This document shows positions 2,890-14,913 of a stretch of DNA of 64,000 bases, piece after piece. Made by a program: the position numbers and the translations under genes. How positions within the stretch are numbered: position 1 is the first letter of the stretch; every line of letters begins with the position of its first letter. The stretch comes from a virus (taxonomy: Duplodnaviria; Heunggongvirae; Uroviricota; Caudoviricetes), in IMG/VR virus record IMGVR_UViG_3300025765_000001, one strand, 5' to 3'. The notes below the pieces were generated by a model. That model did not search any database and had not been told where the DNA came from. It was given only the letters and a program-made list of their open reading frames with translations.

Positions 2890-3707
2890 ATGCTAGCAGC
2901 TAGAAGACTGACTCAATTCCATTTACCCAGAGGAGGATTAGCTATTCTCTACCAAGTGAAATTCCTGCGTCTCGAATGTGTAGCTACCGATAGCTGGATT
3001 ACGTTTGAGCTATCCTACGCTATGGACTTCGGCAATGAGGTAGACAAATTCCTGGCCCATATGATGCCGGGCTAGGAACTGGTGTCGGGTTGCATTGCCG
3101 TAAGCAAATGGCTCACGATGATGCCAATCTAGCCGTGCGTAGGGTAGAGAAAGCCGCTCAGAAAGGTCTAAAGATCGATGTAACAGGCAATCATATTGCC
3201 GGTAGTCTTGATGAATTCAAGAGACTATTGAATGAGAATGTAAAAAAGAATGCCTCTCCTGGCGATACACTGGTTATTCACACGATAGGTCATGGTTTTG
3301 GAGATGGCAGTTTGGCGATGCTAGGCCAAAGAAGTGGGATCACAGATGCTATAGCACAAGCAGCCGAAACTAATAGCCAGTAAATACTATGGTGGCAGTT
3401 GAGTTGTCACGCCGCAGCTAGACTACCTCCTATAAACTCACTCAATGATGTGCGGCAAAGGCTATTAAGCATGATAGCCAGTTCTCATGCCAGCCAGACC
3501 AGTCCGGCAGGCGTTGAGGGCCGTATTATGGAGCGGGTATTTGTAGCCATTGCCGATGACGATAGAGGCATAGACCCAAACCAAGACGGCATTATTACAG
3601 TCGAGGAGTTGAAGGGCTTCTTAAACACAGGTCAATACAAGCGAGGAGACCTATTGTTTGCTCGCTCGCTCCAAGACCCTATATTTGGAATCTACAGACC
3701 AGCATAG
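2890..3707 (+). pseudogene. Caspase/legumain-like (clan CD) protease, interrupted
   Basis: LVIHTIGHG and WQLSCHA His-Gly/Ser-Cys motifs lie in one frame separated by TAA at 3381-3383; further lesions near 3073-3090. Confidence 0.5.
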
Positions 3708-3790
3708 GACTTGTCTATTAGAGACCCGCAAAACCCCGGACAAGTGCATCCAAGGAATTTCATACCATATCCAGATCGGCCATTATCATT

Positions 3791-4447
3791 TCAGAGGGTC
3801 TTGAACATAGGTTCGACCACCTGGAAGAGCCGTTCGTTCTTAGTCATGTAGGATAGGCCGCAACCTTTGTAGTAATCACAGCTTCGTACTTTGTTGTCGT
3901 CTGTGTAATAGAAGCCACGGTGATTTGAGAAGATAAATCTGTAGAGCCACGGTCCTTGGAATCGCTCTATGTCAATCCAAGTATCGTGTGCAAGAATTGT
4001 TTCAGTGCCCGCCTTCAACAGCATCCGAATCTCGGCAAAGCACCCGTAGAGACTGTGATCCCCGTCTACGAAAATGAAATCAAACTCCGGGGAGATGATT
4101 TCGAGTGAGGGCTTCTGGATTAGCTGAACCTTATCGAGCCTCGTGCAGTGGGCGAGGACGTTGGCGTGAATCTTCCTTGAAGGTTTTGGATCGCATGTGG
4201 TGAAATGAAAGTCGGCACCCTGATTCAGTGCCTCAAGAAAAGCTGAAGTTGAGTAGCCATTGCAACAACCAATTTCGAGGCATCTCTTAGGCTTGGTAGC
4301 CATGAGAATGTCGTAGATCAATTGGCGGTATACAGGGCCGATAGATGACTTGATGCCGACACGGTACTTGGTGAAGTCCATACCGTATCTAGGATTCTTT
4401 TGGCGGTTTCGGCGGCTCTGGTAGCGAGATGACTGTGACCTGGACAT
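3791..4447 (-). CDS. Class I SAM-dependent methyltransferase (Methyltransf_24-like)
   Basis: LEIGCCNGYST, FDFIFVDGDHS and ILAHD motifs. Confidence 0.8.
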   Translation of the reverse strand: MSRSQSSRYQSRRNRQKNPRYGMDFTKYRVGIKSSIGPVYRQLIYDILMATKPKRCLEIGCCNGYSTSAFLEALNQGADFHFTTCDPKPSRKIHANVLAHCTRLDKVQLIQKPSLEIISPEFDFIFVDGDHSLYGCFAEIRMLLKAGTETILAHDTWIDIERFQGPWLYRFIFSNHRGFYYTDDNKVRSCDYYKGCGLSYMTKNERLFQVVEPMFKTL

Positions 4448-4946
4448 GAGGCATTACTTGCCTCAGTTCATCGGCCATTACCAAGGCGAATTCCGTACTC
4501 CCCAGCACCATGTTGAAGAAATAATTGAGGCCACGTTCCGCTACACGGATGCCGCCCATCTCGAAGCTTGTATCTAGCTCATTCAAGATGAACCTCTCCA
4601 TGTGAATGTCAACGAACGGATGCATTTCCCGCCGTCGTGCCTTCTCCAGCAACATTTGCTTCCAATGCCTGTAGTAAGGCCGCTGCATGTAGATAGGAAG
4701 CCGCCGCACGAGGCCAACGTAGCCGAAAATAAAAATGCCAGCCCCAACTACGCCGCCAAGGAAGGCTCCGTGGTAGGCCCACAGGCTGTTGTATTCGTGT
4801 TGGACGCTGAGATGGTCGATGACCAGCCAGACAGGGACCGCCACGACCCAGAACACGATGAACAGTGCGTACTGTAGACCGTCATTGAACAACACCGTCG
4901 CTCCATCCTGCCCACCACCAGTCCCATTCTTTGGTTCCGACGACAT
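4389..4946 (-). CDS. Membrane protein (two hydrophobic segments)
   Basis: Two TM-like stretches, GAGGAG RBS. Confidence 0.6.
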   Translation of the reverse strand: MSSEPKNGTGGGQDGATVLFNDGLQYALFIVFWVVAVPVWLVIDHLSVQHEYNSLWAYHGAFLGGVVGAGIFIFGYVGLVRRLPIYMQRPYYRHWKQMLLEKARRREMHPFVDIHMERFILNELDTSFEMGGIRVAERGLNYFFNMVLGSTEFALVMADELRQVMPHVQVTVISLPEPPKPPKES

Positions 4947-5039
4947 ATGGACACTCCTCGTCGCTGTGGGTGCCAGCCCTCCAGCCCAGATGATAGGCTT
5001 GATGAAGGTAGTGCTTCGAGTTTCTGTATACGGGGCAGA

Positions 5040-10904: not shown

Positions 10905-11153
10905 ATGAGAAACACCATCATGTTCATCATAGGCATGTCTATAATTGTGTTCCTCGGATGGTTTGTTTGTTACGACTACTATCTCTCAATGACTGGCAGT
11001 AGGACGTTCAGTACCGTGGTCTACGACTGGACGCAAGCAAATCTCAAGAAACCCCACGTCCTAATTAGTACCGCCGTCACCATTGGGCTTACAATCGGCT
11101 TCGTGCTTGGCTTCATCCTTGGACACCTTTTCTGGCCGCACAATCCATCTTAG
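10905..11153 (+). CDS. Small two-TM membrane protein
   Basis: Two hydrophobic helices; CTACATA 4 nt before ATG. Confidence 0.6.
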   Translation: MRNTIMFIIGMSIIVFLGWFVCYDYYLSMTGSRTFSTVVYDWTQANLKKPHVLISTAVTIGLTIGFVLGFILGHLFWPHNPS

Positions 11154-13381
11154 TGCAAAATGGCCTTTGGTAAATCAAAAAGCCCAGGCCCGCAAGGGCC
11201 TGGGCTTTGTTGATACAACGCCTTGGCAAGCACTTGTTCAAGGTGCTGCACCGCACCAGCCTCGTCCAAGAACAAGCCATCAAGCTGTGCTTCGTAGCAT
11301 TCGCCGATGACCTGTCCAAACAGCGGCCCCGGCTTGAAACCACGGTCGATCAGGTGTTGTCCGCCAATGATCGGCCTTGGTTTTGCAGCCTCAATAGCCA
11401 ATCGCTCTGCGATAGCAGCGATCTCCTTGGCTGGTTCTGGTAGACCACCGGCAAGCGGGGGGCGTCCTGAATGGTCGGCTTCGAGAATGAGCAATAATTC
11501 TTTCATTGTTGCTTTCCCAAGCCGAACAGATAGACGCCGTACCACTCGATCCGTGATCTCGCTGGTGGTCATGCAAATCATATGCTCTGCAACCAGCGGC
11601 AGAACCTTATCTACAATCCTTTGTAGACACCCAATCCTTTCCAAGAATCGGCGAGCTAAAGGTACTCCTACCTCTGCGTGACCCGGCGATCTCCACCTGT
11701 ACGTTGATGAGTGGATTCCTTGTTCTGGCAATGTCTTGCCAAGGTCTTGACAACTTCTATTTTGTCCATTCTCATCAACGTACACGGTGGTCCCGCCGTT
11801 TTGTGGTAGGGCTTTCCCTAAATCGTGGCAGAGAGCCGCAAGTATGATCGTAGCACGATCCTCGCCTTGCAAGCCTTCTCTATCACAGATACGGGCAGCG
11901 GCATCGCATACATGGAGCGTGTGTGTCCAGGCACAACCGATTCTGACTTCAAAACTAGATTTTTCTTCTAGTTTTTGAAGTAGTTCTACTCCATTATAGG
12001 GTGAAGGCAGGTACACAGGAGTAGAACCATGACAGTCAATGCTTCCATTCACTCGAAGGTCGAAGTGAACGAGTACATCACCATCAATGGTAGAACCAGT
12101 CGCATCCACTACAACAAGGGATACGCTTACACCAGTTGGCCTGGGCATAACGGAACCATTGGTGTCCATCGAATCTTGATGGAATTGCACTTGGGGCGAG
12201 AACTCTTTTCCAGTGAGCATGTTCATCACAAAGATGGCAACCGACTCAACAATAGCCTCGATAACCTCGAAATCATTGATGGCTCGATTCACAACCGACA
12301 GCATACAACTCTCAGGAATCTTAAACATGATCCTGATAATTTTACCTGCCTCGATTGCGGATCGACCGAACGACCACACAAGGCTTTCGGGATTTGCGAA
12401 AGTTGTTGGTTCAAACGTCGCCGAAAAACCATCGCCAAGAGACCCTGTGCTATTTGCAGCAGAGAGACCGTCAACGGCACCGTCTATGCCGGGCTTTGCG
12501 GGCGATGTGCCTGCAACAACTGGCATTGCTGCCGACTTTGCAGAAGAACTAGAAAAGAACTTCCGCAAAGTAAAACTCCGATCAACCCTGATGGTTTGTG
12601 TAGAGCTTGCCAAGCGAGAGTTAAACGGAAACTCCAAGAACTTTCGTTCAAGTAGCTCCCATCCTTCCGGGTGCCATTCAGGGTCTTGTGGAACGTCGAT
12701 CAGATTCAATAGCTCTGGGTAGAGCCGAATCCAGCCGCTCTCTACAAGGAATCGAAGGCCCAGAGAAGGAAGTACGCCTTTCAAAGCCCACTTCTCCCAC
12801 TCGCCCCAGATACGCTCAATAGCTAAGGTATCGGCCTCGCAGATTAGCTTCTGGCACATATCAAGCGTTCTAGCATCGGCGATCAGCTTAAACCGGCTTG
12901 CGAACTGGAAGCCCCTCAGCACCCGTAGTGGGTCTTCAGAGAAGTGTTCGCTGATAGCTCGCAATACGCCGTTGAGCAAATCCTGCTTGCCGCCATATGG
13001 GTCTACCAATTGCCCGTCTAACCTCTTGCCGATGGCATTGATGGTGAAGTCACGCCGCAGTGCGGCCTCAGCCGGGGTCATCGTGTGATCGACTTCGACC
13101 TGAAAGCCTCTGTGCCCTCGCCCGGTCTTGTTGTCACGGCGAGGTAGAGAGAAATCGAAGTCTTCATCCTCGGTAGTCAGCTTGATAACACCAAAGGACT
13201 CGCCGACTATGCTCACCTTGCCGAAACGACGCAGTACGATGCACAGAGCCTCGGCACTAAGGCCAAAGACTTCAACATCTACGTCTTTGCTTTCCAGGCC
13301 GAGTAGCTCGTCACGAATACAGCCACCGACCTTGATGGGGTCGCCGCCTGCCGCAACGATGGCTTGTAGGATATGGTTCAT
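11150..13381 (-). CDS. cca: CCA-adding tRNA nucleotidyltransferase with HD domain, carrying a 726-bp in-frame insertion
   Basis: VGGCIRD, DVDVE, RRDFTINA, EDPLRVLR, ERIWGE, PQDPEWHPEG...WTHT, LCHDLGK motifs. Confidence 0.9.
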   Translation of the reverse strand: MNHILQAIVAAGGDPIKVGGCIRDELLGLESKDVDVEVFGLSAEALCIVLRRFGKVSIVGESFGVIKLTTEDEDFDFSLPRRDNKTGRGHRGFQVEVDHTMTPAEAALRRDFTINAIGKRLDGQLVDPYGGKQDLLNGVLRAISEHFSEDPLRVLRGFQFASRFKLIADARTLDMCQKLICEADTLAIERIWGEWEKWALKGVLPSLGLRFLVESGWIRLYPELLNLIDVPQDPEWHPEGWELLERKFLEFPFNSRLASSTQTIRVDRSFTLRKFFSSSSAKSAAMPVVAGTSPAKPGIDGAVDGLSAANSTGSLGDGFSATFEPTTFANPESLVWSFGRSAIEAGKIIRIMFKIPESCMLSVVNRAINDFEVIEAIVESVAIFVMNMLTGKEFSPQVQFHQDSMDTNGSVMPRPTGVSVSLVVVDATGSTIDGDVLVHFDLRVNGSIDCHGSTPVYLPSPYNGVELLQKLEEKSSFEVRIGCAWTHTLHVCDAAARICDREGLQGEDRATIILAALCHDLGKALPQNGGTTVYVDENGQNRSCQDLGKTLPEQGIHSSTYRWRSPGHAEVGVPLARRFLERIGCLQRIVDKVLPLVAEHMICMTTSEITDRVVRRLSVRLGKATMKELLLILEADHSGRPPLAGGLPEPAKEIAAIAERLAIEAAKPRPIIGGQHLIDRGFKPGPLFGQVIGECYEAQLDGLFLDEAGAVQHLEQVLAKALYQQSPGPCGPGLFDLPKAILH
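11936..12661. mobile_element. HNH-bearing insertion in cca
   Basis: Interrupts the conserved HPEG|xxWTHT motif; 242 codons, open on both strands. Confidence 0.75.
12029..12655 (+). CDS. HNH homing endonuclease with Cys-rich C-terminus, antisense inside cca
   Basis: VHRILMELHLGRELFSSEHVHHKDGNRLNNSLDNL, several CxxC pairs, GGAG RBS. Confidence 0.85.
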   Translation: MTVNASIHSKVEVNEYITINGRTSRIHYNKGYAYTSWPGHNGTIGVHRILMELHLGRELFSSEHVHHKDGNRLNNSLDNLEIIDGSIHNRQHTTLRNLKHDPDNFTCLDCGSTERPHKAFGICESCWFKRRRKTIAKRPCAICSRETVNGTVYAGLCGRCACNNWHCCRLCRRTRKELPQSKTPINPDGLCRACQARVKRKLQELSFK

Positions 13382-14451: not shown

Positions 14452-14733
14452 TTAGTCGTCCTCATCATCGTCCGGATCGTCATCATCATCTAAGTCGTCA
14501 TCGTCCGAATCGTCATCATCGAAGTCGTCATCGTCCAGATCGTCGTCATCATCCAGATCGTCGTTATCGAATTCTTCGTCCTCGAAGTCGTCGTCGTCTG
14601 GCTCATCGAATTCCGGGTCATCATCAAAATCGTCTTCGTCCTCGTCGGGACCGGCGACGACGACATCCGCACCGTGAGCGAAAATGACGGTCTCGACATC
14701 GGGCAACTGAACTTCAAACGTTTGGGTTGTCAT
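14452..14733 (-). CDS. Extremely Asp-rich acidic protein
   Basis: AAGGAG RBS; C-terminal two-thirds mostly D/E. Confidence 0.65.
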   Translation of the reverse strand: MTTQTFEVQLPDVETVIFAHGADVVVAGPDEDEDDFDDDPEFDEPDDDDFEDEEFDNDDLDDDDDLDDDDFDDDDSDDDDLDDDDDPDDDEDD

Positions 14734-14773
14734 GGGTATTACTCCTTTTTGCGAGAACAACCTAGTTCAGGAG

Positions 14774-14913
14774 TGGAGGCGAGGGGAGTCGAACTCCTGT
14801 CTAACTGAGTTGCTAGGTTGCCGCCGAGTTTTCGTTGTACGCATTTGTCTCGGCTTGGGCTACCACGCCCCAGGTATCTACTTGGCTCAGCTATCGAAAC
14901 CGTGAACGCCCCC
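14774..14913 (-). ncRNA. ssrA: Miniature tmRNA-like RNA (140 nt) with tag ORF AYNENSAAT*
   Basis: Acceptor stem GGGGGCG/CGCCTCC-A with G3.U70, 5' GGTTTCGA, helix TAGCTGAG/CTCAGTTA, GAC-AGGAG-TTCGACT-CCCCT T-arm, internal 9-codon frame at 14842-14813. Confidence 0.8.

Follow-up and report, generated by a model that had tools for sequence, protein, structure and literature searches.

A phage cca gene holds an antisense HNH endonuclease gene in codon register and is probably translated through it

The cca gene of a very large phage carries, inside an invariant motif, a 726-nt insert whose opposite strand encodes an intact HNH endonuclease, and the cca reading frame stays open through the whole of it. 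The gene lies in IMG/VR virus record IMGVR_UViG_3300025765_000001 (435,946 bp, CheckV completeness 85%), of which a stretch of 64,000 nucleotides, bases 310608-374607 (hereafter the window), was analyzed. The record size and CheckV rating identify the source as a very large phage; the GC content of the genome is 50%. From comparative sequence analysis, we consider it quite likely that the insert is a free-standing HNH homing gene, placed antisense and in codon register, and that cca is read through it as a linker of about 240 residues. The parts of the locus, in window coordinates, are as follows.

11150..13381, minus strand: whole reading frame of cca, 743 aa, open through the insert (open reading frame (ORF) list, Pfam, AlphaFold2).
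12662..13381, minus strand: 5' exon-like part of cca, codons 1-240, nucleotidyltransferase head and neck, ending in WHPEG (alignments; ratio of nonsynonymous to synonymous substitution rates, dN/dS).
11936..12661, no strand assigned: inserted element, 726 nt, cca codons 241-482 (junction comparison with the empty allele L127/P0004).
11936..12028, plus strand: spacer upstream of the HNH start, 61% A+T, with AGGAG at 12017-12021, read in cca as 31 codons ending in Gly.
11947..11980, no strand assigned: imperfect inverted repeat in the spacer, arms 11947-11959 and 11967-11980 (read from the sequence).
12029..12655, plus strand: HNH_3 endonuclease gene (208 aa), whose product has an HNH core plus three Cys4 clusters that are invariant (Pfam, PHROGs).
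11150..11935, minus strand: 3' exon-like part of cca, codons 483-743 plus stop, HD phosphohydrolase domain (Pfam HD).

The insert splits the motif WHPEG↓(D/C)xWTHT of cca (the arrow marks the junction), with WHPEG at residues 236-240 and CAWTHT at residues 483-488. The closest insert-free allele, L127/P0004 (455 aa), reads GAAGGT↓TGTGCC, that is, HPEG-CAWTHT unbroken, and the insert is therefore exactly 726 nt long, with a two-base GG ambiguity remaining in its start. An initial annotation, made from the sequence alone, had placed a 726-nt insert at 11936-12661 between HPEG and CAWTHT, which the empty allele confirms to the base. It had also put the site at the boundary of the nucleotidyltransferase and HD domains; the insert indeed lies at the start of the HD domain, but inside an invariant motif rather than at a loose boundary. 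The HNH gene is in exact codon register with cca, the lowest codon coordinate being 2 mod 3 in both genes. Its ATG follows an AGGAG box at a distance of 7 nt, and its TAG stop (12653-12655), 6 nt away from the 5' junction, is read as the Leu codon CTA in the cca frame. TTA, CTA and TCA codons are all absent from the HNH gene, so that its description in that annotation as an intact antisense gene, codon-to-codon with an open cca and devoid of these triplets, is borne out by ORFs, Pfam and PHROGs alike. Outside the HNH gene, the insert comprises 93 nt upstream of the gene's ATG and another 6 nt beyond its stop, in agreement with the early estimate of about 100 nt, and the insert peptide begins with W and ends with G, again as reported there, without intein termini.

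The endonuclease itself is well defined. It matches Pfam HNH_3 (E=8e-10, above the curated cut-off) and nine PHROG 'HNH endonuclease' families, and both the EHVHH.D..R.NN...NLE...HN..H motif and three Cys4 clusters are invariant in an alignment of 16 intact copies. The structure model has a mean predicted local distance difference test score (pLDDT) of 81, and its best solved-fold match is I-HmuI (PDB 1u3e), a weak one (Foldseek E=0.012, 19% identity); a profile search of PDB sequences returned zinc-ribbon noise only. The gene is single-copy in its own genome. In the clade of L047, L049 and L051, the HNH ORF extends 21 nt beyond the 5' junction into the cca exon and ends ...RMPF. This tail is the antisense of WHPEG plus two codons, and thus host exon DNA encodes the C-terminal tail of the endonuclease in this clade.

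As to the host gene, Pfam places a PolyA_pol head at residues 18-141 (E=5e-18) and an HD domain at residues 485-607 (E=3e-10), and the first ~232 residues superpose on solved class II CCA-adding enzymes with a root-mean-square deviation of 2-3 A. With the head and the C-terminal HD domain both present, the predicted protein fits a class II CCA-adding enzyme with an HD domain. HD residues H487, H519, D520, H568, H600 and D636 are invariant in alignments of all long cca forms. Pfam finds no domain in residues 241-482, and AlphaFold2 gives pLDDT >90 in both exon-encoded parts and mostly <70 in the insert.

The same insert recurs among relatives. Long forms make up 19 of the best 120 protein matches of cca; they measure 674-743 aa, show 40-79% identity and share the insertion site. 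When 1.84 billion cluster representatives were searched with a profile built on the insert peptide, at least 34 clusters (50% identity) were recovered, whose proteins are 636-788 aa long and contain the insert near residues 240-500; a single-sequence search with the linker peptide finds 4 proteins only. To avoid bias toward called long ORFs, loci were also sampled independently, by fetching them via HNH peptide patterns. This sampling yielded nine distinct full-length relatives, six of which are complete loci open throughout cca, and cca of L052, from the same sampling, is open as far as the contig end; the other two are L053, with one stop, and L050, which is split. The junction is identical in all loci with the insert. 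Fifteen loci with DNA (the window and 14 others) each have one continuous cca ORF with zero stops in the cca frame, and their inserts measure 663-744 nt, all multiples of three, with ten distinct values counted (663, 666, 669, 675, 678, 699, 705, 708, 711, 726 and 744, repeats left out). The first residue of the insert peptide is W (in a few cases S, T or C), the last is G throughout, and the residue at +1 is D, C, H, S or G. The spacers of these loci are poorly conserved and 52-76% A+T; they come in seven different lengths (36-108 nt), again all multiples of three, and contain no stop in the cca frame, versus 0-6 in the two other cca-sense frames. Several relatives' spacers carry -10-like TATAAT motifs, and the HNH gene probably has its own promoter in the spacer; the inverted repeat of the window is kept in part in L002 and L003. 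Threefold length and stop avoidance persist among relatives down to about 30% extein identity. Such a collection of homologous insertions had been proposed as a check in the initial annotation, which took frequent stops or frameshifts in them as evidence against a tolerated insert; the 15 loci are all in frame and stop-free, and a minority of other relatives is broken or split (L050, L053, P0141, P0158).

All contexts of the element look phage-like, and it has been seen only in metagenomic contigs. No match was obtained in a blastn search of deposited phages with cca, nor in IMG/VR with the HNH alone; with the HNH alignment, IMG/VR returned, besides the window's own record, only distant free-standing HNH_3 genes. 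A survey of 185,579 GTDB species genomes found no relative. On balance, the arrangement is likely to be widespread in cca genes of uncultivated large phages, with the HNH gene persisting antisense, in register and read through.

An open in-register antisense frame is not an extreme rarity in a single gene. TTA, CTA and TCA make up 2.65% of codons in the window genome, giving P ~0.004 for 208 codons without any; such an open frame is found in 2/95 genes of 180-260 codons of the same genome and in 8/72 distant HNH_3 ORFs. Host genes were sought opposite the distant HNH_3 ORFs lacking the three codons and rejected as candidates, the open antisense frames barely exceeding the HNH ORF, as expected by chance. 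Taken alone, the case is thus only mildly unusual, and the caution in the initial annotation that such frames are often open by chance stands for the single case. It does not hold for the family, whose pattern is far beyond chance. In the HNH genes of the 15 loci, TTA/CTA account for 0/220 Leu codons and TCA for 0/183 Ser codons, against 158/730 and 37/297, respectively, in the exteins of the same genes. A-ending CTN/TCN codons number 0/248 versus 45 expected, while 18% of codons are A-ending in other four-fold families. In loci ascertained via the HNH only, the count is 0/92 versus 16.7 expected (P ~1e-8); the P values assume independent lineages, an approximation, as the lineages share ancestry. 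The contrast is sharpest in the AT-rich L046, in which host exteins and HNH are both 36% GC, and TTA/CTA make up 67% of extein Leu codons and 0/15 HNH Leu codons.

The strand under selection was identified from Nei-Gojobori estimates of dN/dS in 15 pairs, with synonymous sites near saturation between clades and not within clades. The ratio is 0.10-0.26 in the HNH frame and about 1 (0.66-1.27) in the cca frame over the same insert DNA, implying that the HNH is a selected, working protein; the antisense peptide apparently evolves neutrally apart from stop avoidance. In the N and C exons of cca it is 0.06-0.26 (5' part 0.07-0.20; 3' part 0.06-0.26). Together with the invariant HD residues, this indicates that the HD domain 3' of the insert is still needed. 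Since the C-part has no start codon of its own near the junction in the window, nor one in most relatives, the HD domain can be reached only by translating the insert.

The distribution of the insert points to mobility. On a tree of 118 exteins, it requires at least six gains or losses, and supported branches force four of these; the occupied P0002 has the empty P0004 as its sister, and the window protein branches just outside the two. The exons of the empty allele L127 are 79-84% identical. The window and L002 share 88.6% identity in the insert versus 75.8% in the exons, with a synonymous divergence (dS) of 0.41 in the HNH versus 1.4-2.3 in the exons. HNH identity exceeds extein identity in 98/105 pairs, the most extreme of which involve L046 (exteins ~30% versus HNH 50-61% identical). 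Spread by homing is likely on these comparisons, with the HNH presumably cutting insert-free cca alleles.

We propose that phage cca was invaded by a free-standing HNH homing endonuclease gene that has its own ribosome-binding site and probably also a promoter. The invader would have entered the DNA for the invariant WHPEG↓DxWTHT motif, where the HD domain begins. In the sense orientation the stop of a free-standing ORF would end cca; hence the antisense orientation, in which stops read as TTA, CTA or TCA. The start and stop signals of the HNH would be invisible to ribosomes reading cca, its stop being read as Leu or Ser, and only TTA, CTA and TCA codons in the HNH would stop cca, all of them avoidable synonymously without cost to the HNH protein. 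An antisense, in-register position would thus be the one arrangement in which an autonomous gene can reside in another ORF at no amino-acid cost to itself. Ribosomes would translate cca straight through the element into one polypeptide, its nucleotidyltransferase and HD parts connected by a neutral, probably disordered linker of ~240 residues. Selection for cca function would keep the insert stop-free and a multiple of three in length, and the host's need for an open frame would police the synonymous codon choice of the HNH over long evolutionary times. Of the alternatives in the initial annotation, the conserved length and stop avoidance favor the one in which the insert is tolerated as a translated antisense peptide.

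Several observations weigh against this explanation, in addition to the shared ancestry of the lineages and the near saturation of synonymous sites between clades. That the 743-aa protein is made and active is deduced from selection signatures only, and it would be unusual for an enzyme to put up with a ~240-residue unstructured loop within an invariant active-site motif. L053 carries one CTA near the contig end, which is TAG in the cca frame; P0141 looks frameshifted; and P0158, from a 245-kb contig, begins within the insert, as do a few others. In some phages, the C-part of cca may therefore act as a chain of its own. For P0137 and P0153, near-identical full-length cluster mates exist, and these two are possibly partial calls. 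As to homing, no co-conversion tract or gradient is visible beside the junctions, and the shallow clades of the HNH and extein trees agree, both of which weigh against recent homing. Predicted read-through is accordingly described here as the majority state among relatives and not as a universal one.

The strongest rival to read-through is a split enzyme, in which two chains work even where the frame is open, the HD part being made from an internal initiation site. This is improbable. Support for it comes from L050, in which cca consists of two ORFs. The GGGA run at the junction is one G short there, so that the N-part ends WHPEESYP-stop, 5 codons past WHPE; the C-part, preceded by an AAGGA box, starts with ATG-GGA right at the junction Gly. 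The spacer is cut down to about 18 nt, the HNH is intact, and the three ORFs lie in three different frames. L050 is a classical gene fission by a free-standing endonuclease gene, of the type documented for mobE and mobA (PMC2988022), and it shows that the two cca halves can be separate chains and that the site tolerates a chain break. Several database proteins likewise begin inside the insert and then run through the HD domain. However, a two-ORF split with its own stop and start occurs only in L050, not in the window or the 14 other loci; the window shows no start codon near the 3' junction, and no internal start is conserved across lineages. An independent start of the C-part would also give no reason for the first half of the insert and the spacer to be stop-free and multiples of three, both of which are kept, and ribosomes leaving the N-part meet no stop, so that they must read on.

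Removal of the insert by unrecognised RNA splicing, protein splicing or long-range ribosomal bypass is still less credible and, in our view, very unlikely. The insertion site, an invariant motif, is typical of introns and inteins, and the Gly codons flanking the insert recall the take-off and landing codons of the T4 gene 60 bypass cassette, which is carried by the HNH element MobA and leaves a gap of 50 nt untranslated between matched take-off and landing codons, with a stop standing at take-off (bioRxiv 10.1101/2022.08.31.505936). Nevertheless, a group I or II intron is contradicted by searches of Rfam, which detected no intron or ribozyme over the whole window or, at E up to 10, over 11500-13100; only 36-108 nt of poorly conserved non-HNH spacer would be available to it, and the usual splice-site bases are missing at the boundaries. 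An intein is contradicted by the final G in place of His-Asn, by a first residue that is mostly W and by the variable +1 residue, which depart from the Cys/Ser/Thr terminus pattern; moreover, a host-frame peptide with dN/dS of about 1 cannot encode a conserved Hint splicing domain. Lack of ribozyme matches and of intein termini, together with this ratio, supports the view taken in the initial annotation that the insert is a homing-type HNH element, neither intron nor intein. The ribosomal hop that it had entertained on the strength of the flanking Gly codons fares poorly: these codons differ in 11/15 loci, the next codon is TGG in 13/15, no stop follows the first Gly, and the gap would be 663-744 nt. 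Its other option, an unknown splice, is disfavored as well, since neither splicing nor bypass needs an open frame with a length divisible by three, which is the very feature that is conserved.

Exaptation, that is, an inserted peptide that has become a useful domain of the enzyme and whose frame is kept open for that, is similarly hard to credit. The insert has been retained over long divergence and AlphaFold2 predicts some secondary structure at residues 330-390 (pLDDT 60-72), but a moderate pLDDT can also arise when the HNH on the opposite strand keeps the alignment conserved. The peptide contains no Pfam domain, and its frame shows the near-neutral ratio given above while the overlapping HNH frame is constrained. 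Least tenable of all is a dead cca whose antisense frame is open through HNH codon bias, with only open cases noticed: in-register antisense frames are often open and protein databases list only ORFs accepted by gene callers, but the loci ascertained via the HNH show the same stop avoidance, the non-coding spacers are open and multiples of three too, both exons are under purifying selection with invariant catalytic residues, and L046 avoids TTA/CTA in its HNH alone.

Free-standing HNH genes that split phage genes are known from mobE in nrdA of Aeromonas phage Aeh1 and mobA in T4 gene 39/60 (PMC2988022). The cca element resembles them in being an HNH gene without intron or intein, at a conserved critical site of a phage enzyme gene and patchy among relatives, and L050 is exactly of their kind. 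The mobE and mobA insertions, however, have the orientation of the host gene and yield two polypeptides, whereas the HNH of cca lies antisense in codon register and leaves the host frame free of stops. The T4 gene 60 cassette is comparable in that an HNH mobile element brings a damage-limiting device and Gly codons flank the interruption; it differs in that the cca insert is 663-744 nt long, its Gly codons are mostly unmatched, no stop is present and the open frame is conserved. With endonuclease-housing inteins and group I introns the element would, by analogy, share a niche, the invariant motif of a conserved gene, where an occupied allele is immune and an empty one cleavable. It has, unlike them, no splicing termini, Hint domain or ribozyme, and its endonuclease is on the opposite strand. 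The true intein that L050 appears to carry elsewhere in cca provides a direct contrast.

Rickettsia palindromic elements are in-frame, stop-free selfish DNA translated as an extra peptide (PMC10969869). The cca insert appears to parallel these and in-frame miniature inverted-repeat transposable elements in its threefold length, the lack of a host-frame stop and an otherwise intact host protein. They are, however, non-autonomous palindromes of ~150 bp, whereas cca holds an autonomous gene on the other strand, on which the host frame imposes codon-level selection. In mitochondrial cox2 of the wasp Campsomeris, an in-frame insert contains antiparallel overlapping ORFs and an HNH-like nuclease (PMC5374615). 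That insert, too, is in frame with both host halves and implicates a nuclease, but it is a multi-ORF insert in an animal mitochondrion, whose transcript undergoes processing to separate mRNAs for cox2a and cox2b, giving two polypeptides, which is not so here. I-HmuI of Bacillus phage SPO1 is, like the cca HNH, a member of the HNH_3 family; it is intron-encoded and is without the three Cys4 clusters of the cca HNH.

To our knowledge, homing endonuclease genes have been thought to survive in essential genes only via a self-splicing intron or intein or by gene splitting. Our literature search, which did not cover all journals, found no description of an antisense, in-frame, read-through endonuclease gene. 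If the proposed explanation is true, it would add a third way of life for such genes besides introns and inteins. The comparative evidence suggests a simpler route, with no splicing, in which orientation and register make a selfish gene harmless to translate. It would also offer a natural, replicated case in which the frame of one gene constrains the synonymous codons of a gene on the opposite strand, and would mean that an enzyme can tolerate a neutral linker of ~240 residues inside an invariant motif. For annotation the loci hold a warning, being filed as ordinary or 'hypothetical' nucleotidyltransferases of 680-740 aa with the endonuclease uncalled.

The profile of the antisense-HNH peptide also matches proteins other than cca. 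In P0226 (1089 aa, inorganic pyrophosphatase domain at 619-753), residues ~478-565 of the protein sequence match it (hhalign probability 96.5%, E=1e-9), and weaker matches are found in P0167 (1296 aa) and P0238 (3253 aa, LPD1 domain). All three may be host genes other than cca with an antisense HNH insertion in frame. Some 165 database 'proteins' of 54-300 aa (hits P0164-P0266) match the profile at positions ~115-180 only, where the EHVHHKDGN...NLE motif is read in antisense; probably they are shadow ORFs that entered public catalogues through calls on the wrong strand of HNH_3 genes.

Further interruptions lie in cca itself, and in these phages the gene seems to be a mobile-element hotspot. 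The apparent true intein of L050 lies at 3121-4968 on the minus strand, in the nucleotidyltransferase domain of the split gene (DFTFN↓CFAGETRV ... ILTSN↓S), and the HD part of L050 is fused to a Cys-rich C-terminal extension of >550 aa. In the window, a second in-frame insertion lies within the HD domain at 11690-11761 on the minus strand (residues 541-564, 72 nt, 24 aa, NGQ...STY). Inverted arms of ~19 bp bound it, at about 11693-11711 and 11771-11790, and it is missing from P0002-P0005. The RNA is predicted to form a hairpin of -43 kcal/mol, AlphaFold2 pLDDT is low there, and the genome has no further copy. The appearance of the insertion suggests a small in-frame element of palindromic type, or else an inverted duplication.

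Genes around cca are on the minus strand, and the ten ORFs neighbouring it have no Pfam match. Close to cca, at 14771-14913 on the minus strand, Rfam reports a match to tmRNA (RF00023; 55 bits versus a gathering score of 47) that is only 143 nt long, yet spans model positions 1-374. ARAGORN found no tmRNA or tRNA over the whole 64-kb window, and the match may be a reduced or permuted phage tmRNA-like gene. It adjoins a very acidic, low-complexity ORF at 14452-14760 on the minus strand.

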